Source: a virus. From it: a stretch of 42,491 nt of DNA. A program made the position numbers and the translations under genes. Within the stretch, counting starts at the first letter, position 1. Every line of letters begins with the position of its first letter. Of the stretch, positions 7,981-35,625 are shown one piece after another. The stretch is taken from IMG/VR virus record IMGVR_UViG_3300045988_020338, positions 1 through 42,491 of that record; one strand, given 5' to 3'. The notes below the pieces were generated by a model. That model did no database searches, had not been told where the DNA came from, and saw only the letters and a program-made list of their open reading frames with translations.

Positions 7981-8526
7981 GCCCAACCATGCATTTATCG
8001 TGTCGTTTTCTTCTTCCGTCATCGGCTTTTTTAGATCGACAAGCCGCCTGTTTTCTCGGTAAAATTCTCGATCCGATTTGTCAAGCGTTTTCCCCTTTGC
8101 TTTTAAGCTGCGAATCCGCACGATGTTTGCAAACAGGCAATCCCCGATTTCGTAGTATGCAGATACAAATGACCACCAGTGAAAATAAGGCATTGCGCGC
8201 ACTTCATGTCCCACAACGTGGTTGATGGGAGCCACGATGTATTGAAAGTCTTGCTCCCAGTCCATCAACTTAGGGCGCTTTTGATTATCGCCATCGTCAC
8301 CGCAGTCGAGAAACCATGTCATCTGCTTCACAGCTTCTGGAATGTGCTCATCCGGCATTTTTAAGAAGTCCGGATAAAAGATATCCAGAGCTGCAAGCGC
8401 TTTCTGCTCGTTGGTCAGATCGGCCGCAGCAAATACCGCTAGCACGTCCAGTGCCGCGCGATAGTCTGAGCGGATTTTATAGTCAACGCCGCAGACGTTC
8501 AGCGACGTTGGAAGATCGTACATCAT
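7957..8526 (-). CDS. Phage Gp15-family protein (tail assembly chaperone position)
   Basis: 189 aa. MMYDLPTSLNVCGVDYKIRSDYRAALDVLAVF...EQKALAALDIFYPDF matches my memory of the Gp15 family. ATGA overlap with the upstream gene. It lies directly upstream of the tape measure gene. Confidence 0.75.
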   Translation of the reverse strand: MMYDLPTSLNVCGVDYKIRSDYRAALDVLAVFAAADLTNEQKALAALDIFYPDFLKMPDEHIPEAVKQMTWFLDCGDDGDNQKRPKLMDWEQDFQYIVAPINHVVGHEVRAMPYFHWWSFVSAYYEIGDCLFANIVRIRSLKAKGKTLDKSDREFYRENRRLVDLKKPMTEEENDTINAWLGKKTPDAK

Positions 8527-8948
8527 TTACGGTATTTCTGCGTATACTTGCGGATTTTCTCATCGGCAAGCTCCTGTTCGCGCTTTACTGCCTCATCAAA
8601 CTGCTCGATGATGGCGGTCATAAAGTTTTGCCAAACCGGAGCACCGTTGGCCGCGGAATAGGCGTTGACGCTGCCAAAAAGCGTATCGGCAATGTCCTGT
8701 CCAAACAAATCATTGATGATGCTACGCATTTCCTTGTCAAGAGAATCAACCATGTCGAAAAGCTCATCATCGGGGATATCCTTTTCGAGTGTCTTTGCGC
8801 GGGTCTCCTGCTTTTTGCGCAGGTCATCAAAGGTTTTATATGCTTTCTTTGCAAAGTTAACATCCGCAGGGTTGAAGTACACCGTCACGATGCCGTTCAC
8901 GCCGCGAATGGTATATTCCTTTACACCGGAATCAAAAGTAAGTTCCAT
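8523..8948 (-). CDS. Tail assembly chaperone
   Basis: ORF trimmed to ATG 8948 (GGAGGAATAT upstream). A 141-aa acidic protein between the major tail and Gp15-like genes. Confidence 0.65.
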   Translation of the reverse strand: MELTFDSGVKEYTIRGVNGIVTVYFNPADVNFAKKAYKTFDDLRKKQETRAKTLEKDIPDDELFDMVDSLDKEMRSIINDLFGQDIADTLFGSVNAYSAANGAPVWQNFMTAIIEQFDEAVKREQELADEKIRKYTQKYRK

Positions 8949-8958
8949 ATATTCCTCC

Positions 8959-8987
8959 AAAATGAGGGCTGACAGATGCCAGCCCTC
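8959..8987 (-). terminator. Hairpin plus short U-run after the major tail gene (attenuator or terminator)
   Basis: GAGGGCTG (8964-8971) pairs with CAGCCCTC (8980-8987). On the minus strand this is followed by AUUUU. Confidence 0.45.
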
Positions 8988-8993
8988 TATGGT

Positions 8994-9518
8994 TTATTCG
9001 CCCTCGGTAAAAGTAACCGTATTGCCAGAGATAGCGGCAGTGCCGACCGTGCGCGTGCCGCCAAGCGTCACGTCGATAGGCATACCGATAAAGCCGCCAC
9101 CCTCGCCGCCGAGGGAAGAGGGCTTAACCATGCAGGACGAATAACGCTCCGCAAATACTGCGGTCTTTGCCGTGCCTGCATAAGCGTGGACAATCAGCAC
9201 GTCCTGATTCGCCAGCGCCGCCGCGTTCTGCTCCTTGACCGCAAGATTCCAAACCTTGACGATGGCAGGATCGCCAGCGTCCAGATCAGACGGATCAAAG
9301 GTCTGCGTGATGATGGGTTTCTTCATGGTCGTGCGCGTCGTGCCGAGAATATCCTTCGAGGAATCCTCCTGCCAGTCGTATTCCATGCTGGAATCCGTAA
9401 CGCGCGTACCGAGGGGAGACCACGTGGGGGTTCCGGTTTCGCCCGTGTTCAGATACGCGATCAGAAGTTCTCGATCTACGGTCTGCCCCGCCGTGGTGTT
9501 AAAGGTCGTATCAGCCAT
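8994..9518 (-). CDS. Major tail protein
   Basis: 174 aa. MADTTFNTTAGQTVDRELLIAYLNTGETGTPTWSPLGTRVTDSSMEYDWQEDSSKDILG is a typical siphovirus major tail N-terminus. It sits between the tail terminator-like and chaperone genes. Confidence 0.8.
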   Translation of the reverse strand: MADTTFNTTAGQTVDRELLIAYLNTGETGTPTWSPLGTRVTDSSMEYDWQEDSSKDILGTTRTTMKKPIITQTFDPSDLDAGDPAIVKVWNLAVKEQNAAALANQDVLIVHAYAGTAKTAVFAERYSSCMVKPSSLGGEGGGFIGMPIDVTLGGTRTVGTAAISGNTVTFTEGE

Positions 9519-9867
9519 TTTTAATCACCTCGTAGTTCATTTTCATAAGGATTTGGTGATCTTCGTCGCCGTTTTCATACACGGCGAAAAGCGAGGATCG
9601 CGTTGTTGGCTCAATGCGAATGACGCGGCGACCGTCGCCAATGTCAGGCGGCGTTTCGCTTGCTGCCCAATCGCCCAATGCGTTAAGCAGCTCGTCAGCT
9701 TTGAGCCGTTTGTCATTGCTATTCCCCGGCTTCATGCGGTAGATAACCTTGAATTGGTATTCCGCCTGATACCCGCCGAGAATGTATTTTTTGACAATGT
9801 ATGCCGCCTGAATCGTGGACAGGGCCATCGCCGGAGTATCGGCGGGGAGAAATTCGAATCGAATCAA
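9511..9867 (-). CDS. Head-tail joining protein (tail terminator / minor-capsid-family); true start probably upstream
   Basis: The track ORF starts at TTG 9867 with no RBS. The frame stays open to 9972 and encodes ...SAAEEDQVSRKLLAWLNTFPNKPVD, which looks like a genuine N-terminus. See the finding on the ATT codon at 9957. Confidence 0.6.
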   Translation of the reverse strand: MIRFEFLPADTPAMALSTIQAAYIVKKYILGGYQAEYQFKVIYRMKPGNSNDKRLKADELLNALGDWAASETPPDIGDGRRVIRIEPTTRSSLFAVYENGDEDHQILMKMNYEVIKNG

Positions 9868-18443: not shown

Positions 18444-19086
18444 TCGTCACCACCTCTCTTGTCACAATTTTGCTACCAGCCCCCACCCCTTGGCCTTACA
18501 TAGCAGACTTTACCCGCCCCGAAGGGCTTCAACGCCGCACTCAAAGCAGCGGCTCTCCTCTTTTGGTACGGCATTGCAGTCCTGTCCTGCTTTAGCGATT
18601 CGGGAAAGTCCCCGTCACTCGCTGTGGTCTCCCCTTACGGGACACCTATGCCGCATATGTCCGCAACGAGCCGGTCGGCGCTTCGGCATCTCCAACAGCA
18701 TGAGCATTTGCATCCTCACGTCCGGGCGGCAGCTGCCTGTTCTGCCCTTCGTTGCGGTGCTGCCGTCTAAAACTGCTATCACCATGCGCAATCACGGTGA
18801 CGTGCTGGAACTCCGGTAGCATAGTAGTTTGTAAGCATGTCCCCGCTGGGCCACATCGTTGAGAGGTGCGCGGGGTCCTGTGCCGCATGAAAGGTGCGAC
18901 CTCTCGGCCCTGATCGTGGGCTGCATCGTGCGTGCGGCATGTTGCGGGGGGCGGTGTGAAAAGATGAAAAGCACCGCGCCCCGCTATGCCGCAGGAGGTG
19001 GACGCCATAAATGAGAGAACCGCAAAGGCTTTTACACCTCTGCGATTCTATTATCTCATAAGCAAATGGCTTTTTAAGGCCAACTT
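18444..19086 (-). ncRNA. Candidate large structured non-coding RNA (class unknown)
   Basis: 643 nt between the late activator and terS, with no RBS-led ORF. Helices found by eye:
- 18661-18669/18749-18757: 9 bp, perfect.
- 18934-18940/18986-18992 plus 18944-18956/18972-18984: 7+13 bp with one mismatch.
- 18861-18867/18899-18905, nested in 18848-18852/18906-18910.
A C(UUCG)G tetraloop (18516-18527) and a GUAA loop (18632-18641) exist only in the minus sense. Confidence 0.45.
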
Positions 19087-28501: not shown

Positions 28502-29031
28502 TCCTCCACCTCCAAATACGCCATTGCGCTCTGCACGCCGAAGATGCGCGCCGCCTGATGGCTGTTAAAAAACACGTCGATGTGGTTTCCGTTGACACCG
28601 CCGCCGCAATCCTCGGCGATATAGCTGTGCTGCGTGCCGTCCGGCCAGATGAGCAGGACGCGCGTCCCGTAAGGGATCACCTTGGGGTCGACTGCGATCG
28701 TGCGGCCCTCGGTTGCCAGCGTGCCGGTCGCGGTGTAGCCGCTTGCCCACTTTCCGCAGCAGCATCGCCCGGGGCAATAGGCCGTCAGCGTAAACTCGCT
28801 GAGAAACACGTCGTTGCACATGGCGCTCTCCGTCGCGGGCTTGTCCCACGCGGGATCATACTCCTCAACGACTACCGAGGATTCCTCGGGACTTGCTTCG
28901 ACCGCCTGCGCGCTGGTGGCGAGGATTGAGATCACGATCAAAAGGATCGTCGCGCCCAGGCACACCGCCGCGAACAGCGCCGATTCATCGGCTTTGCGCT
29001 GCTCTCTCGTGCGCTTGTCGTGCCATCTCAT
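28498..29031 (-). CDS. Membrane-anchored 3D-domain protein (MltA/RlpA-like wall hydrolase fold)
   Basis: 177 aa. TM helix (LFAAVCLGATILLIVISILA), then FTLTAYCPGRCCCGKWASGYTATGTLATEGRTIAVDPKVIPYGTRV...YIAEDCGGGVNGNHIDVFF, which is the 3D-domain signature. Confidence 0.75.
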   Translation of the reverse strand: MRWHDKRTREQRKADESALFAAVCLGATILLIVISILATSAQAVEASPEESSVVVEEYDPAWDKPATESAMCNDVFLSEFTLTAYCPGRCCCGKWASGYTATGTLATEGRTIAVDPKVIPYGTRVLLIWPDGTQHSYIAEDCGGGVNGNHIDVFFNSHQAARIFGVQSAMAYLEVEE

Positions 29032-29855
29032 CGCGTCACCTCTTCCATCGTGATTTGTGTGGGCTTTTCAAACAGCGGGGCAAGCATTTGTTCCTGCGCT
29101 GCCCTGTAGAAATTCTTGTCGATCTCAAATCCGTAAGCATTGCGGCCCAGCTCATACGCCGCGCGAAGTGTGGTCGCGCTTCCCGCACATGGGTCGATTA
29201 CAACATCGCTGGGGTCGGTAAAAACCTCAATCAATCGTTTCAACACGTTCACCGGCTTCTGCGTGGGGTGGATTTTTGGAATGTCCTTCCCGTCGCGCTC
29301 CCACTTCTGCCAGTCAAAAACCATCTTTCCCGTGCCACGAATTGGTTTCCCATCTTCGCCGATCTCGCGCCCGTTGTTGAATTTCGGCAGCTTGTCGCGG
29401 TAAAGAACCACCGCGAACTCCGTCGCGCTTACCACTCGCATGTTGGCTTTAAGCACCTGCGCGGAATAGTTTTTGCAGAAAAACATCGGGTAGCTGTTCT
29501 TAAATCCGTACCGCTTGCCGTACTCCACGACGGTCTGCATCTGGTCAAACGCGCAGAAAACAAGCATTGCCGGGGCTTGCCCTTTCTCTTTCGGCTCTTT
29601 CTTCAAAAGGCGGTTGCAGAAGTGCATATATTCTGCAATCTTGAAATAGCCATCGGAATTGAAGAAACTTCTCTTTGCCTTTTTGCTCTCGCCGTTTTTG
29701 TTGTCGCCGCCGATGTACCACGTCGGATTGCTTCCGTAAGCGTCAGCGCCGATGTTGTAGGGAATGTCCGCGATCACGAGCTGCGCCTTTGGGATTCCGT
29801 ATTTCTTAAAATTCTGGAAATTGTCATGGTACAGCTCGCATTTCATCGTCTGCAC
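29028..29855 (-). CDS. DNA methyltransferase (N6-adenine/N4-cytosine, beta class; no cognate nuclease seen)
   Basis: 275 aa. Motif IV LVIADIPYNIG is near the N-terminus and motif I VIDPCAGSATTLRAAYELGRNAYGFEID near the C-terminus. Confidence 0.85.
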   Translation of the reverse strand: MQTMKCELYHDNFQNFKKYGIPKAQLVIADIPYNIGADAYGSNPTWYIGGDNKNGESKKAKRSFFNSDGYFKIAEYMHFCNRLLKKEPKEKGQAPAMLVFCAFDQMQTVVEYGKRYGFKNSYPMFFCKNYSAQVLKANMRVVSATEFAVVLYRDKLPKFNNGREIGEDGKPIRGTGKMVFDWQKWERDGKDIPKIHPTQKPVNVLKRLIEVFTDPSDVVIDPCAGSATTLRAAYELGRNAYGFEIDKNFYRAAQEQMLAPLFEKPTQITMEEVTR

Positions 29856-31382: not shown

Positions 31383-31622
31383 TTAGTTCTCTTCGTTGGG
31401 CCTCATTGCCTTTTCTACTCTTGCAGCCTGTACGGCTTCCGATGCTTCTCGAATCTCCGCTTCGGTCACGCCATATAAGCGGGTCAGCGGTCTAATGTAC
31501 TTGCTTGCGATACCATTCACACCGCGTTCCCAGTTCGACACCGCAGAAACTCTTACACGGAGTTTCTTTGCTACGTCTTCCTGACGCAAACCGGCGTTCT
31601 CTCGGATTGCCTTTAATTCCAA
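31383..31622 (-). CDS. Cro-like XRE-family HTH regulator (first early gene)
   Basis: 79 aa. TTG start with AAGGAGGGG upstream. LRQEDVAKKLRVRVSAVSNWERGVNGIASKYIRPLTRLYGV is an HTH_3-type motif. Confidence 0.8.
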   Translation of the reverse strand: MELKAIRENAGLRQEDVAKKLRVRVSAVSNWERGVNGIASKYIRPLTRLYGVTEAEIREASEAVQAARVEKAMRPNEEN

Positions 31623-31637: not shown

Positions 31638-31658
31638 TATAAAGTTCAGAACTTTATA
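31638..31658. promoter_or_regulatory. 21-bp perfect palindrome (operator candidate)
   Basis: TATAAAGTTC-A-GAACTTTATA. It abuts the -35 of the plus-strand promoter and lies just upstream of the cro RBS. A related half-site, TAATTAAGTTC, is at 31766-31776. Confidence 0.6.
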
Positions 31659-31687
31659 TTGACAAACGCAACCAACGCCGCTATTAT
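31659..31687 (+). promoter_or_regulatory. Rightward (lysogeny-side) sigma-A-type promoter
   Basis: TTGACA (31659-31664), 17-nt spacer, TATTAT (31682-31687). Confidence 0.6.
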
Positions 31688-31785
31688 GTAAGTGTCAGCC
31701 AACAAAATATCGGTTATAAGTCCGCAAAACGGGAAATCCGTTGGGGGCTTGGGTTTTTGTTGCCTTAATTAAGTTCTGTAAGACT

Positions 31786-31839
31786 ATTATAGCCGATGTT
31801 TCATCGGCTGTCAATCGGTTATCCGGCGAAACATCGGAT
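31786..31839 (-). promoter_or_regulatory. Leftward early promoter with perfect consensus and embedded operators
   Basis: On the minus strand: TTGACA (31814-31809), 17-nt spacer, TATAAT (31791-31786). The entire spacer is the palindrome GCCGATG-AAA-CATCGGC (31792-31808). A second imperfect palindrome, ATCCG-N9-CGGAT, which contains GAAACATCGG, is at 31821-31839. Confidence 0.7.
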
Positions 31840-31886
31840 TTTACGCTTTGCACAATTTTTTCTTTCTCCTTTGTGAGGGTTTGTCA

Positions 31887-32699
31887 ATGGCGCTATTTGA
31901 TAAGCAAATAAAAAAATACGTCGAAGAAAACTTTTCTGAAAAAGAAAAAGCACTCGCAGAAACCGAGCGCTCTGTCCAGCGGCATTTTGCTAAAAGCCGC
32001 GAATATAGAATTATGCTGCAAGATTATCAGAAGGAATTGCGTGAGCGTGATAGAGCCATTTCTGAAAAAGAAGCCAAACTATCTAAACGCAAAGAGGATT
32101 TGGACGAATTCGAATCCACATTAAAGGCGCGAGTAAAAGAAGATGTTGTGCGAGAGGCCAAAGAAGAAAAAGCTACGTTAAAAGCGGATTCTATAAAGCT
32201 GCAAGAGGAAATAAAATCCTTATCGGCGAAAAAAGCCGGCCTTATGGCTGCGGAATACAAAATTATAGACTGGGTCTCTCGGATGGAGAAAAAAGAAAGC
32301 GAAGTATTCGACGAAATACTTGCCGACGCAAACAAATTCCAAAAGTTCAAACTGTCTATTGATGGGTATGAGTTTGAAAGCTACGTTGCCGATCTGCTTA
32401 TAAAAAACGGCTATGAGAAGGTCGAGGTAACAAAAAAGTCGCAGGATTTCGGAGCAGATATTCTTGCCGAGAAAACAGATGTGCGATATGCGTTTCAATG
32501 CAAATACTACTCAGGACAAGTTGGAATTGAAGCGGTGCAGCAAATTTACGCAGCAAAAGAGCATTACGATTCTCATGTTGCAGTTGTCGTTACAAACAGC
32601 GTGTATACAAAAGCCGCTAAGATTTTGGCAGAAGAATTAAACGTAGTCCTGTGGGACTGCGAAGACCTCACGGTTTTGTCACAAAACAAGGATATGTAA
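31887..32699 (+). CDS. Coiled-coil protein with C-terminal Mrr-cat-type (PD-(D/E)xK) restriction endonuclease domain
   Basis: Trimmed to ATG 31887 (GAGGG upstream). 270 aa. The N-terminal ~150 aa are a Lys/Glu heptad-rich coiled coil. The C-terminus is GYEFESYVADLLIKNGYEKVEVTKKSQDFGADILAEK...YAFQCKYYSGQVGIEAVQQIY...VAVVVTNSVYTKAAKILAEELNVVLWDCEDL. Confidence 0.75.
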   Translation: MALFDKQIKKYVEENFSEKEKALAETERSVQRHFAKSREYRIMLQDYQKELRERDRAISEKEAKLSKRKEDLDEFESTLKARVKEDVVREAKEEKATLKADSIKLQEEIKSLSAKKAGLMAAEYKIIDWVSRMEKKESEVFDEILADANKFQKFKLSIDGYEFESYVADLLIKNGYEKVEVTKKSQDFGADILAEKTDVRYAFQCKYYSGQVGIEAVQQIYAAKEHYDSHVAVVVTNSVYTKAAKILAEELNVVLWDCEDLTVLSQNKDM

Positions 32700-32701
32700 T
32701 T

Positions 32702-33145
32702 ATGCCTAAGAAATTAGATAGTGTAAGCCTTAACACAAGCTGCGTAAATTTAATTGTAAATTACTGTGAAAAAGCGGATATAAGCGAAGCGGCGTTTTCG
32801 AGAAAATTCAAGAAAAATAACGGTTGGGTAACTGACTTACGCAGAAGCAAAAATTTGAATTTGCCGTCAAAAGAACTTGCTGTGCAAATGTGCTTGACGC
32901 TCAACGTCTCCCCCGATGACATCCTCTTGCACGAGGGGAAGACCCCGGAAGAAACCGCCAAGTGCTTAGAGGATATCGAGACGGTGCGGAAACTGGTCGA
33001 GGCCGAGAGCGCAAAAAAAGCCCCCGCCACAGAGGGCGAGGGCGAAAAGGACGCGCTTATTAAAGCTGTCAGGGAAATAACCGATAAAGATACGGCGCTG
33101 GCTGTTTTCGATGAGCTTAGTAAAAAAATGCGGGAGCTAATGTAA
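32702..33145 (+). CDS. XRE-like HTH protein (CI-type repressor candidate)
   Basis: Trimmed to ATG 32702 (TAATTATG junction, AAGGA upstream). 147 aa. ADISEAAFSRKFKKNNGWVTDLRRSKNLNLPSKELAVQMCLTLNVSPDDILL is HTH_3-like. The C-terminus is charged and helical. Confidence 0.6.
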   Translation: MPKKLDSVSLNTSCVNLIVNYCEKADISEAAFSRKFKKNNGWVTDLRRSKNLNLPSKELAVQMCLTLNVSPDDILLHEGKTPEETAKCLEDIETVRKLVEAESAKKAPATEGEGEKDALIKAVREITDKDTALAVFDELSKKMRELM

Positions 33146-33336
33146 TGCCTACTTTCTACCCATCAAATTCGCAAGACCGAATAAAAACCGAAGCAGAGCG
33201 GAAAGACCATGAGCGGCAGCAAAAAGAACAAGCAGAAAAAGAACACCGCGAGAAAATGCGGTTTATTATTACTGCTGTTCTTTCTGGCATTGCGGCGCTC
33301 GCTGCTGTTGCAGGAGTGATAATTCAACTTGCTTGA
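33145..33336 (+). CDS. Small tail-anchored membrane peptide
   Basis: 63 aa. TAATG overlap with the upstream gene. Charged N-terminal half, then C-terminal TM FIITAVLSGIAALAAVAGVIIQLA. Confidence 0.55.
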   Translation: MPTFYPSNSQDRIKTEAERKDHERQQKEQAEKEHREKMRFIITAVLSGIAALAAVAGVIIQLA

Positions 33337-33460
33337 GCGCGATTAGCGTGTCAATCTTGTCAGAGATTTCCTTCAATCCAAATACAACGTCGTTGATCTG
33401 GCCTTTCATGATGATGCTGTTCTCTGCCAGTTTGGAAATGTCAAACTCATAGCCCTTCAT
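33269..33460 (-). CDS. Small hypothetical protein (63 aa), second gene of a convergent pair
   Basis: Trimmed to ATG 33460 (AAGAGGTG upstream, ATGA overlap with the upstream gene). Its 3' end overlaps the plus-strand gene 33145..33336 by 68 nt. Confidence 0.5.
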   Translation of the reverse strand: MKGYEFDISKLAENSIIMKGQINDVVFGLKEISDKIDTLIALKQVELSLLQQQRAPQCQKEQQ

Positions 33461-33645
33461 AGCACACCTCTTTCTTTTAATTTTGAAAATACTTCTGCGC
33501 AATCCGCAGGGGTTAACTGGTCTATCATTTCAAGGATTTGTTTGCGCAAGCTCTCAAGGCAATTTTGATCGTTCGTACTGGGTTTATAGCCTTTCCGCAT
33601 AATCTGTTTTTTTATTGTACCATCTTTTGCACTATTACACAACAT
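33457..33645 (-). CDS. Small hypothetical protein (62 aa), first gene of a convergent pair
   Basis: Trimmed to ATG 33645 (GGAGGG 8 nt upstream). A TATAAT box lies on the minus strand at 33669-33664. Confidence 0.5.
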   Translation of the reverse strand: MLCNSAKDGTIKKQIMRKGYKPSTNDQNCLESLRKQILEMIDQLTPADCAEVFSKLKERGVL

Positions 33646-33730
33646 TTTGTGTCCCTCCAAGTAATTATAGTAACGGGCCTATATGTCGATTGTCGCACAT
33701 AGCGGTGCAAGCATCAATATTTCGAAGTAA

Positions 33731-33770
33731 AGGCCCCGCCGCCCTCTGCAACAAACGGCGGGGCCTTTTT
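33731..33770 (+). terminator. Rho-independent terminator (plus strand)
   Basis: 11-bp stem AGGCCCCGCCG (33731-33741) / CGGCGGGGCCT (33756-33766), 14-nt loop, T-run to 33770. Confidence 0.7.
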
Positions 33771-33934: not shown

Positions 33935-34306
33935 ATGAACATTCAAGAAGTGTGTAAATCCCGTAAAGAAGAACTGAAACTAACCTATCAGGACATTTCC
34001 GATGCTTCCGGCGTGCCGCTGTCCACTGTGCAGAACTTCTTTTCCAAGTTTTCTAAAGCTCCGTCTATCTACACCGTTGCGCCGATCTGCAAAGCGCTTG
34101 GAATTTCGCTTGATGAAGCGTTCGGAATTTCCGAACACTTGACACCAACCGAGGAAACCTTGCAAGCGCGGAATGATGAGCTGGAACGCCACGTGGACGC
34201 AAAGGCCGATACCATCGAGATCATGCGGCGCGGTGTCCGTATCCGAAACGGCGTGATTGCTATAATGTTTGTCATTATCGTTCTACTGGCTGTATGGTGC
34301 TTGTAG
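33935..34306 (+). CDS. Membrane-anchored XRE-family HTH regulator
   Basis: 123 aa. LTYQDISDASGVPLSTVQNFFSKFSKAPSIYTVAPICKALGISLDEAFG (HTH_3-like), a short coiled coil, then C-terminal TM VIAIMFVIIVLLAVWCL. Lies 20 nt upstream of the integrase start. Confidence 0.7.
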   Translation: MNIQEVCKSRKEELKLTYQDISDASGVPLSTVQNFFSKFSKAPSIYTVAPICKALGISLDEAFGISEHLTPTEETLQARNDELERHVDAKADTIEIMRRGVRIRNGVIAIMFVIIVLLAVWCL

Positions 34307-34326
34307 ATTGATTGGAGGGGGATTTG

Positions 34327-35625
34327 ATGAGAGCGGCACTATATATCCGCGTTTCCAGCGAGGAACAAGCGCGGCATGGTCTATCATTACAAGAGCAGCG
34401 GGATGCGCTGGCAAGATATGCCAAAGCGAATAAAATGACCGTGGTGGGCATATATGAGGACGCGGGCATATCCGCGCGAAAGCCGTACAAAAAGCGCCCC
34501 GCGCTCCTGCGGCTGCTGGACGATTGCAAGGCGGGAAAGGTGGACACGATCCTGTTTATTAAACTCGACCGATGGTTTCGAAATGTTGCTGGATATTACG
34601 ATGTGCAGACGCAGCTCGACCGGTACGGCGTAACGTGGCAAGCGACGGAAGAGGACTACGAGACGCGCACCGCATCAGGGCGATTGAAGGTCAATATCAT
34701 GTTATCCGTCGCGCAGGACGAAGCCGACCGCACGAGCGAGCGAATCAAATTTATCAACGATGGCAAAAGGGCAAAAGGGCAACCGGCAGGCTCAAAAGCG
34801 CCTTTAGGGTATATTATCAAGGACAGGCAATACCAAATTGATAACGACACAGCAGACGCGGCGCGAGATATGTTTGCCGCATATATCCGCCTGAAAAGCG
34901 TCCTTGCTGTAAAACGATATATGCTCGACACATGGGGAATTGACCGAGCATATAACAAGTATGTCAACTATTTCCACAACCGGCTTTACATTGGCGAGGT
35001 GTACGGCATCGAAAACGCTTGCCCCTCGTTGGTGAGCAAGCAAGACTTTGACCTTGTAACTGATGTTTCCCGCCAGCGGTCACAGCGCTGTGCCGGAGTT
35101 GATGTGGATCGCGTGTATCTGTTCTCGGGGCTTTTGCATTGCAAGGAATGCGGAAGGACAATGCAGTCGGAAACCGCAAAACAGATATATACATATTACC
35201 GTTGCCGGACGCGGATGCTTGACAACTCCGCTTGCCTGCACATGAAGAGGATCAGGGAAGACTTGCTGGAAGAATACCTATTGCACGAGCTTGTTGGGAT
35301 TGCGGAGCGGAACAATCGGTATTACAAAAAGGCCAAAAAAAAGCCCACGCAGAGCGCGGACGCGATACGAAAGAAAATAGGCAAGCTGAAAACGCTGTAT
35401 CTAAATGATTTGATCGAGCTGGACGATTACAAGGCAGAATACGCGAGCCTGAAAAAGTCCCTTGAGACCGTGGAAGAAAAGCCAAAGACAGACCTTGATG
35501 CCTTGAGAAACGGGCTGGGCGAATATGATACATACTCGAGGGAAGAAAAAAAGGAATTCTGGACGCGCTTCATCAGGAGGATTGATGCAGACAACGATGG
35601 CGCGTTTTTCGTAACGCCGCGTTAG
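34327..35625 (+). CDS. int: Large serine recombinase (integrase)
   Basis: Trimmed to ATG 34327 (GGAGGGGG upstream). MRAALYIRVSSEEQARHGLSLQEQRDAL...GISARKPYKKRPALLRLL...VDTILFIKLDRWFRN is the resolvase catalytic domain. It is followed by the recombinase domain and a Zn ribbon (CKECGRTM...YYRC). Confidence 0.9.
   Translation: MRAALYIRVSSEEQARHGLSLQEQRDALARYAKANKMTVVGIYEDAGISARKPYKKRPALLRLLDDCKAGKVDTILFIKLDRWFRNVAGYYDVQTQLDRYGVTWQATEEDYETRTASGRLKVNIMLSVAQDEADRTSERIKFINDGKRAKGQPAGSKAPLGYIIKDRQYQIDNDTADAARDMFAAYIRLKSVLAVKRYMLDTWGIDRAYNKYVNYFHNRLYIGEVYGIENACPSLVSKQDFDLVTDVSRQRSQRCAGVDVDRVYLFSGLLHCKECGRTMQSETAKQIYTYYRCRTRMLDNSACLHMKRIREDLLEEYLLHELVGIAERNNRYYKKAKKKPTQSADAIRKKIGKLKTLYLNDLIELDDYKAEYASLKKSLETVEEKPKTDLDALRNGLGEYDTYSREEKKEFWTRFIRRIDADNDGAFFVTPR

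Follow-up and report, generated by a model that had tools for sequence, protein, structure and literature searches.

When three genes lie tightly packed and co-oriented at the lysogeny end of a temperate phage genome, are they the parts of one system or simply neighbours? The question is posed by the region between 31.6 and 33.4 kb of the IMG/VR virus record IMGVR_UViG_3300045988_020338, a stretch of DNA of 42,491 nucleotides that was analysed at its full length and is referred to here as the window. Its genes g1, g2 and g3 encode, in this order, a protein with an Mrr-type nuclease domain, a helix-turn-helix (HTH) protein of the XRE type and a small membrane peptide, and an original prediction made from the sequence alone had grouped them into a single prophage-encoded defence operon. 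The open reading frames (ORFs) have the sizes and junctions claimed for them (Table 1), and they do belong to the lysogeny side of a temperate phage genome, with a Cro-like gene opposite. The explanation that we favour, with modest confidence in it as a whole, is a phage immunity cassette and not a three-gene defence system: g2 would be a CI-like repressor, g1 an accessory nuclease of the exclusion type and g3 an interchangeable component.

Variable slots on either side of the HTH gene

The composition of the locus in related phages provides the most direct answer. With g2 as the sole anchor, we gathered 80 IMG/VR loci and sorted the genes next to it by type; all counts are given out of 79 loci. 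Upstream of g2, where g1 lies in the window, 22 loci encode a g1-like protein of the Mrr type, 23 a protein of 221–367 aa with no known function, and 23 a protein of 232–259 aa, likewise with no known function; the others have a zinc-ribbon protein (three loci), another uncharacterized protein (two), a 105-aa ORF (one), an HSDR_N-type nuclease (one) or no called gene (four). All told, proteins of at least seven kinds, Mrr included, are found upstream of g2. Downstream of g2, a DUF2513 protein is found in 20 loci, a g3-like peptide in 10, some other small protein (a dozen kinds, most of them with a membrane helix) in 28, and nothing in 21. The occupants of the two slots vary independently and combine freely, and a scan anchored on the conserved leader that precedes g1 (discussed below) gave the same picture, plus new occupants.

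These counts bear directly on the idea that g1, g2 and g3 constitute one dedicated defence system in which a nuclease works with a regulator or sensor and with a membrane peptide. The packing and shared orientation of the genes would suit such a system, and the same trio does recur in one related locus (L038), but an Mrr-type gene, g2 and a g3-like peptide stand together in one of the 79 loci only, and of the 22 Mrr-type loci just one has a g3-like peptide. Elsewhere g3-like peptides accompany mostly non-Mrr upstream genes. Contigs with an 84%-identical g2 and a g3-like peptide carry an unrelated protein of 191–221 aa in the g1 position; contigs with an 89%-identical g1 lack g3; and where g1 is 99–100% identical, a DUF2513 protein replaces g3. 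We therefore regard a three-component system as very improbable, and the central claim of the original prediction is not supported. As to co-occurrence, neither the trio nor g1 with g3 keeps company across loci; g1 and g2 do, yet g2 has at least six other kinds of partner, and relatives of g1 occur without g2.

What the loci do show is that g1 sits in a one-gene slot between the operators and the putative repressor gene, and that unrelated proteins occupy this slot in related phages, so that g1 is an accessory gene travelling with the immunity type. As in other accessory-gene hotspots, conserved sequences, here the leader and g2, flank seven or more types of cargo, and a second slot follows g2. 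With the exception of the HSDR_N nuclease, the alternative upstream proteins gave no match in Pfam or PADLOC. Families that replace g1 in sister phages include the one of 221–367 aa (L019, 4324–4989), the one of 232–259 aa (in the slot of L110 and L069) and one of 187 aa (L215, 8880–9443).

The second slot, behind the putative repressor gene, takes any of many small membrane or DUF2513 proteins, which replace one another there, and in the window its occupant is g3. The gene overlaps g2 by one base (TAATG), and its product is the charged peptide with a C-terminal transmembrane helix that had been described, the helix being evident as a 23-residue hydrophobic tail; no family match was found in PADLOC, PHROGs, NCBIfam or Pfam. 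The slot behind a repressor is the classical position of superinfection-exclusion genes, and by analogy g3 may be such a gene.

Prophages are well known to carry accessory or exclusion genes beside the repressor, as is the case for lambda rexAB, lactococcal Sie2009, Salmonella BstA and the defence genes of cluster N mycobacteriophages. With genes of the rexAB kind g1 has in common its lysogeny-side location, the same orientation as the repressor, variability among related phages and dispensability for the phage backbone; unlike them, it occupies a slot upstream of the repressor gene, between that gene and its operators, and the cargo is therefore inherited together with the immunity specificity. 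A second precedent is provided by the antiviral hotspots of P2-like phages and P4-like satellites, where conserved flanks enclose unrelated genes that replace one another (Rousset et al. 2022, PMC9122126). Here, too, unrelated genes swap between conserved flanks in closely related phages, but the phages are gut Clostridia siphoviruses, each slot holds one gene, and among the occupants it is only the two nuclease types that match defence families, by their domains.

A candidate repressor and its operators

The HTH gene follows g1 in the same orientation, with 2 nt between the g1 stop and the g2 start (TAATTATG), the true start being 32702 and not 32703. The product had been called XRE-like, a description that stands. 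The protein itself has no Pfam match; 27 of 43 homologues match HTH_3 or HTH_31, and on this ground g2 is homologous to HTH_3. Its structural model reaches a pLDDT of about 80 over residues 10–100, and the best Foldseek matches to it are nearly all HTH proteins of the XRE type, namely C.Esp1396I, the N-terminal domain of lambda CI, P22 C2 and HigA, each of them weak. In a sequence search of solved structures the XRE matches were not significant, and a g2 profile compared with alignments of the two other HTH proteins of these phages, the Cro-like protein and a membrane-anchored protein encoded beside the integrase (HTH-TM), gave weak matches of 17% and 1% probability, respectively. Homologues of g2 fall into 825 clusters.

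If g2 is a repressor, what does it bind? The 264-nt region between cro and g1 contains two face-to-face promoters that are kept across all lineages. Both hexamers of the leftward promoter, which faces cro, are conserved in nearly all loci, and the 17-bp spacer between them is itself an operator-like palindrome (O1, GCCGATGTTTCATCGGC), with a second copy (O2, TCCGGCGAAACATCGGA) about 30 bp away. O1 has its place in this spacer in every locus; in most phage types the spacer is palindromic, its sequence differs between types, and several other types likewise have a lineage-specific second copy. The O1/O2 type follows the recognition region of g2, NNGW going with CCGAT and NNRW with CCTAC, and half-sites such as GCCAGA...TCTGG and ACTG...GCAGT are shared by loci that have a similar g2 HTH but unrelated slot genes. 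The two other HTH proteins do not behave in this way. One and the same Cro type is seen with as many as three palindrome types, and HTH-TM proteins whose HTH regions are identical go with three or four O1 types, so both were rejected as the O1/O2-specific repressor. Because the palindromes track the g2 HTH and the slot gene, and neither Cro nor the HTH-TM protein, g2 is most likely the immunity repressor; the earlier guess that it might double as CI is thus probably right.

This assignment agrees with what is known of CI-type repressors, of which TP901-1 CI is an example with an N-terminal XRE HTH and a C-terminal oligomerization region. With the N-terminal domain of lambda CI, with P22 C2 and with the C proteins of restriction-modification systems, g2 shares its fold class, and like theirs its gene is divergent from cro, with palindromes that overlap the cro-side promoter; unlike these proteins, it is too divergent for Pfam, is encoded second in its operon behind a variable gene, and has no Peptidase_S24 autocleavage domain, its 147 residues ending in a short helical tail. 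Many Gram-positive phage repressors have no Peptidase_S24 domain either, so its absence from g2 does not exclude a repressor role. An HTH domain, a gene divergent from cro and co-varying palindromes at the lytic promoter are all present, and it is from these that we infer binding.

The close spacing of g1 and g2 invites a quite different interpretation, in which they make up a toxin-antitoxin pair whose first gene encodes the toxin, as is the case for HigBA and MqsRA, and the HTH protein both neutralizes the nuclease and represses the operon, serving addiction or abortive infection. HigA antitoxins are indeed among the structural matches of g2, and one conserved partner that goes with many upstream proteins resembles the promiscuous antitoxin domains. 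However, the part of g2 that would be expected to recognize a cognate toxin is tied to the wrong neighbour: the C-terminal tail (window 33016–33145) tracks the gene downstream of it (adjusted mutual information 0.73) and not the one upstream (0.25), which argues against g2 as a g1-specific antitoxin. Identical tails accompany the Mrr nuclease and the unrelated 221-aa protein, the same nuclease occurs with different tails, and relatives of g1 are found without an adjacent HTH gene or after unrelated HTH genes. In addition, operators that overlap the promoter of the divergent cro operon are what one expects of a repressor. The specific, co-varying and co-occurring pairing that characterizes type II toxin-antitoxin genes was therefore not found for g1 and g2, and we consider such a pair quite unlikely. 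Inherited with the downstream gene and not with the HTH domain of its own protein, the tail suggests a recombination point in the g2 linker, and perhaps that it interacts with the protein encoded downstream. In one locus (L215, 9673–10059) an unrelated HTH_3 domain is fused, at the same position, to the same C-terminal tail as that of the g2 in L001, which fits a modular repressor.

The rightward promoter raises a separate question, namely how g1 and g2 are expressed. It had been proposed that this promoter feeds the three genes. The promoter is there, with TTGACAA and most of its TATTAT -10 element (the fourth position being T or C) conserved in 57 distinct leader sequences, but a terminator-like hairpin with a U-tract stands between it and g1, and for this reason direct feeding of g1 is uncertain. 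Expression of g1 and g2 may depend on read-through or on a weaker promoter near a conserved TTGCAC (31848–31853). Between the promoter and the hairpin, just past the predicted transcript start, lies an almost invariant stretch (beginning GTGTCAGCCAACAAAATATCGG), of which a 15-mer recurs unchanged in the first 28 loci and a 19-mer in 102 IMG/VR contigs, once per contig listed; it is unchanged in an alignment (A9) in which the flanking proteins drop to 32–48% identity. The hairpin was folded for each sequence individually, which is more informative than the alignment-based RNAalifold, where a MAFFT alignment of the leaders gave a weak consensus with the variable inner stem misaligned. Folded on the plus strand, 33 distinct sequences average -13.2 kcal/mol, against -8.6 on the minus strand, and in 29 of them the plus strand is the more stable; although the inner stem differs between phages, its pairing is kept. 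With neither the gathering threshold nor the E-value threshold did Rfam give a match in the cro-g1 intergenic region. The leader element looks like a small RNA of 65–75 nt antisense to the cro leader, or else an attenuator ahead of g1. A further palindrome, TATAAAGTTCaGAACTTTATA, abuts the -35 element of the rightward promoter and could serve as an operator for Cro; other lineages conserve only its right half.

The nuclease in the upstream slot

The product of g1 has the architecture claimed for it, an Mrr-cat-type core preceded by an N-terminal helix of about 150 residues. Residues 157–262 match Pfam Mrr_cat (PF04471) with E=5.7e-27, and all the motifs quoted earlier are present. Conservation of the catalytic residues, the point on which the claim of a nuclease could have foundered, is complete: no substitution of E164, D187, G189, D191 or Q204-C205-K206 occurs among 35 aligned full-length homologues, which are 38–89% identical to g1, and on this basis the nuclease looks active and probably is. 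The AlphaFold2 model (mean pLDDT 87) consists of a single unbroken helix from residue 3 to 153 followed by a compact alpha/beta domain, whose nearest solved structures by Foldseek are AF1548, MspJI, AspBHI, EndoMS, Can2 and the Avs4 nuclease; a sequence search of solved structures matched AF1548 only. The helix had been described as a coiled coil. One long charged helix (46% K/E/R/D) is indeed predicted, with a heptad signal that is only modest, so a coiled coil is plausible.

Is the helix a module that other effectors also use? A search with it returned 17 hits among 1.84 billion representative proteins, and all examined full-length hits carry the Mrr nuclease, so its candidacy as a sensor module common to other effectors was rejected; since in these hits it comes with the same nuclease, helix plus Mrr is a fixed architecture and not a swapped module. 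Three of these hits have N-terminal membrane helices, and some members of the g1 family (L029, 5001–5945; P0328, P0330 and P0331) carry one or two membrane helices before the long helix. One membrane-anchored relative is a solitary chromosomal gene among housekeeping genes, between SHMT and a transglutaminase gene. Two further relatives lie downstream of unrelated CI-like HTH genes and upstream of tyrosine integrases, and the interval between repressor and integrase is the classical accessory-gene position in Gram-positive prophages. The g1 family comprises 82 homologue clusters; the closest full-length homologue in a named genome, from Oscillibacter ruminantium, is 41% identical, and UniProt already holds a 94%-identical protein under the automatic name "restriction endonuclease". 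Our literature searches found no study of this protein family. The GC content of g1 is 41%, against 53% for the window.

How g1 compares with known systems is largely a matter of what surrounds its catalytic domain. It has the same catalytic fold and D...(Q/E)xK motif as the Mrr and type IV restriction endonucleases (Mrr_cat, PF04471), MspJI and AspBHI, but in place of a DNA-recognition domain it has a 150-residue helix found in its own family only; Pfam detects no Mrr_N winged helix or SRA-like domain, and in the AlphaFold2 model residues 3–153 are taken up by the helix. The nuclease domain is also shared with PDC-S02, the C-terminal nuclease of ZorD and the Lamassu protein LmuA (E=1e-9, 1.6e-14 and 1.8e-5, respectively), but these PADLOC matches are limited to about residues 135–265, and the partners that define those systems (ZorABC, LmuB/SMC or a helicase) are missing. 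A hit of LmuB (E=0.017) falls in the charged helix (residues 11–149) and is probably compositional. No full-length defence-system match to g1, g2 or g3 was obtained with PADLOC, PHROGs, NCBIfam or Pfam, in keeping with the original view that no named system is represented.

The same prediction held that no methylase, ATPase or SMC-like partner is present, and as regards partners linked to g1 this is correct. No SMC or ATPase gene lies near g1 in the window or in related loci. A DNA methyltransferase does exist in the early operon, but it is not associated with the nuclease across loci: it is found in a minority of related phages only, with a homologue in one of 17 Mrr-type loci versus three of 21 loci of the 221-aa type, and was accordingly rejected as a hidden partner of g1. 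With no linked methyltransferase and no SMC-like LmuB partner, the locus is, as had been concluded, neither a classical restriction-modification system nor a Lamassu system. Overall, g1 is best read as a stand-alone accessory nuclease of the Mrr type, with a family-specific helical stalk, inside the immunity cassette.

Such a nuclease might nevertheless serve the phage life cycle itself, as a sensor or trigger of induction, in anti-defence, or in host-DNA degradation or recombination, the slot then holding alternative regulators or host-takeover genes. A slot within the genetic switch, flanked by the operators on one side and the repressor gene on the other, would be natural for genes of this kind, as would inheritance with the immunity type, and most occupants have no known function or defence-family match. 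A conserved role in the switch is, however, difficult to reconcile with the unrelated folds found in one slot (Mrr, HSDR_N, zinc ribbon and several uncharacterized ones). Moreover, g1 is oriented with the repressor and the integrase and away from the lytic genes, its relatives hold the classical repressor-integrase position in other phages, and Mrr-type domains are typical restriction or defence effectors. We therefore think a life-cycle role unlikely, and the domain and setting of g1 point to superinfection exclusion by DNA cleavage as its most likely role.

In the immunity cassette that we envision, the N-terminal XRE-type HTH of g2 would bind the lineage-specific palindromes O1 and O2 and thereby shut off the early operon, with its short helical tail probably mediating oligomerization. 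The nuclease would be expressed together with the repressor in lysogens, where its long helix may pair two or more subunits so that the Mrr-type domains could cut the DNA of superinfecting phages. It would act as a single-protein nuclease resembling a type IV restriction enzyme, or as an exclusion or abortive-infection nuclease, and the membrane-anchored relatives suggest that some members of the family may act at the membrane.

Several considerations weigh against this model. The operator type is linked to the slot-gene subtype as tightly as to the g2 HTH (adjusted mutual information 0.91 vs 0.86), and the attempt to separate g2 statistically from the slot gene as the operator partner failed because the whole block is inherited together; what then favours g2 as the binder is elimination, together with its fold and a small number of informative recombinants. 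The argument for a defence role of g1 is drawn entirely from its position, its variability and its domain family, with PADLOC matches at the level of that domain, and the HSDR_N nuclease is the only other occupant of the slot to match a defence family. Nor does g1 have a recognizable DNA-recognition domain through which it could spare host DNA. Finally, the terminator-like element separates the strong rightward promoter from g1, so that expression in lysogens is an assumption of the model.

A bolder interpretation can also be put forward, which we regard as possible and hold only tentatively. It would see the slot as an undescribed defence hotspot of widespread human-gut Clostridia phages, the helix-Mrr, 221–367-aa and 232–259-aa families as new single-gene systems, each inherited with an immunity specificity, and the leader with its terminator as a new antisense RNA of the lysis-lysogeny switch.

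The phage and the wider meaning of the locus

The window comprises the whole genome of a temperate siphovirus-type phage of gut Clostridia. Its minus strand encodes terminase, portal, major head protein, tape measure, tail fibre, RecE/RecT and the DNA methyltransferase, and related contigs come from human and animal gut samples; relatives in the phage GenBank collection are all unannotated. One integrated copy adjoins spo0A and ftsZ and others adjoin smpB, which makes the host a spore-forming member of the Firmicutes. The integrated copies have two attachment regions (L005, 9306–12813; L019, L023 and L026, about 8200–9700), with serine-integrase phages adjoining spo0A and tyrosine-integrase phages adjoining smpB. 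Near the terminase genes, at 18662–18756 on the minus strand, there is a match to the Rfam skipping-rope RNA (RF02924) of 45.6 bits against a gathering score of 36.7.

Close to the cassette (Table 1), the Cro-like gene keeps its position in all related loci. The first of two small convergent ORFs, the one of 77 aa, overlaps the final 68 nt of g3, and related loci have called genes of comparable size at the corresponding place; at 33735–33763 there is a bidirectional terminator-like hairpin. The HTH-TM protein, which has a C-terminal membrane helix and is encoded directly upstream of the integrase, is conserved at 40–96% identity alongside serine and tyrosine recombinase integrases alike.

Table 1. 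Positions and properties of the features in and around the cassette, numbered along the window
Feature	Position	Strand	Description
DNA methyltransferase	29028-29855	-	N6/N4 type; in early operon, no linked nuclease
Cro-like XRE HTH gene	31383..31622	-	79 aa; first in leftward early operon; Pfam HTH_31 and HTH_3, about E=1e-11
Palindrome TATAAAGTTCaGAACTTTATA	31638..31658		21 bp, perfect 10-1-10; between cro ribosome-binding site and rightward -35
Rightward promoter	31659..31687	+	TTGACA-17-TATTAT; near-consensus sigma-70 type, 11/12 consensus positions
Almost invariant stretch	31692..31716	+	22-25 nt
Terminator-like hairpin and U-tract	31717..31761	+	Within about 30 nt of predicted rightward start
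Leftward promoter	31786..31814	-	TTGACA-17-TATAAT; perfect consensus, 12/12 positions; towards cro
O1 palindrome	31792-31808		Operator-like; spacer of leftward promoter
O2 palindrome	31822..31838		Operator-like; second copy
g1	31887..32699	+	270 aa, ATG to TAA; occupant of variable slot upstream of putative repressor gene
g2	32702..33145	+	147 aa, ATG to TAA; divergent XRE-type HTH (about residues 1-100), linker, short helical C-terminal tail
g3	33145..33336	+	63 aa; charged, C-terminal membrane helix; occupant of slot downstream of putative repressor gene
Two small ORFs	33269..33660	-	77 and 67 aa; convergent on g3
HTH-TM gene	33935..34306	+	123 aa; membrane-anchored XRE HTH protein; HTH_3 E=1e-7, RstR weak
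Integrase	34312..35625	+	Large serine recombinase; Resolvase E=1e-30, Zn_ribbon_recom E=3e-13

Prophage accessory or defence genes beside a repressor are a kind already known; what is new is the hotspot, and its candidate genes, in gut Clostridia phages. The case carries a warning, in that tightly packed prophage genes need not form one system. Gut Clostridia abound in temperate phages that have hardly been studied, and the locus provides a working map of their switch, with face-to-face promoters, lineage-specific operators, a modular repressor and a conserved candidate small RNA, enclosing two slots in which the phages swap genes. If the occupants of these slots are exclusion genes, they would make up a short list of candidates that includes a nuclease architecture absent from PADLOC and two sizeable uncharacterized families.

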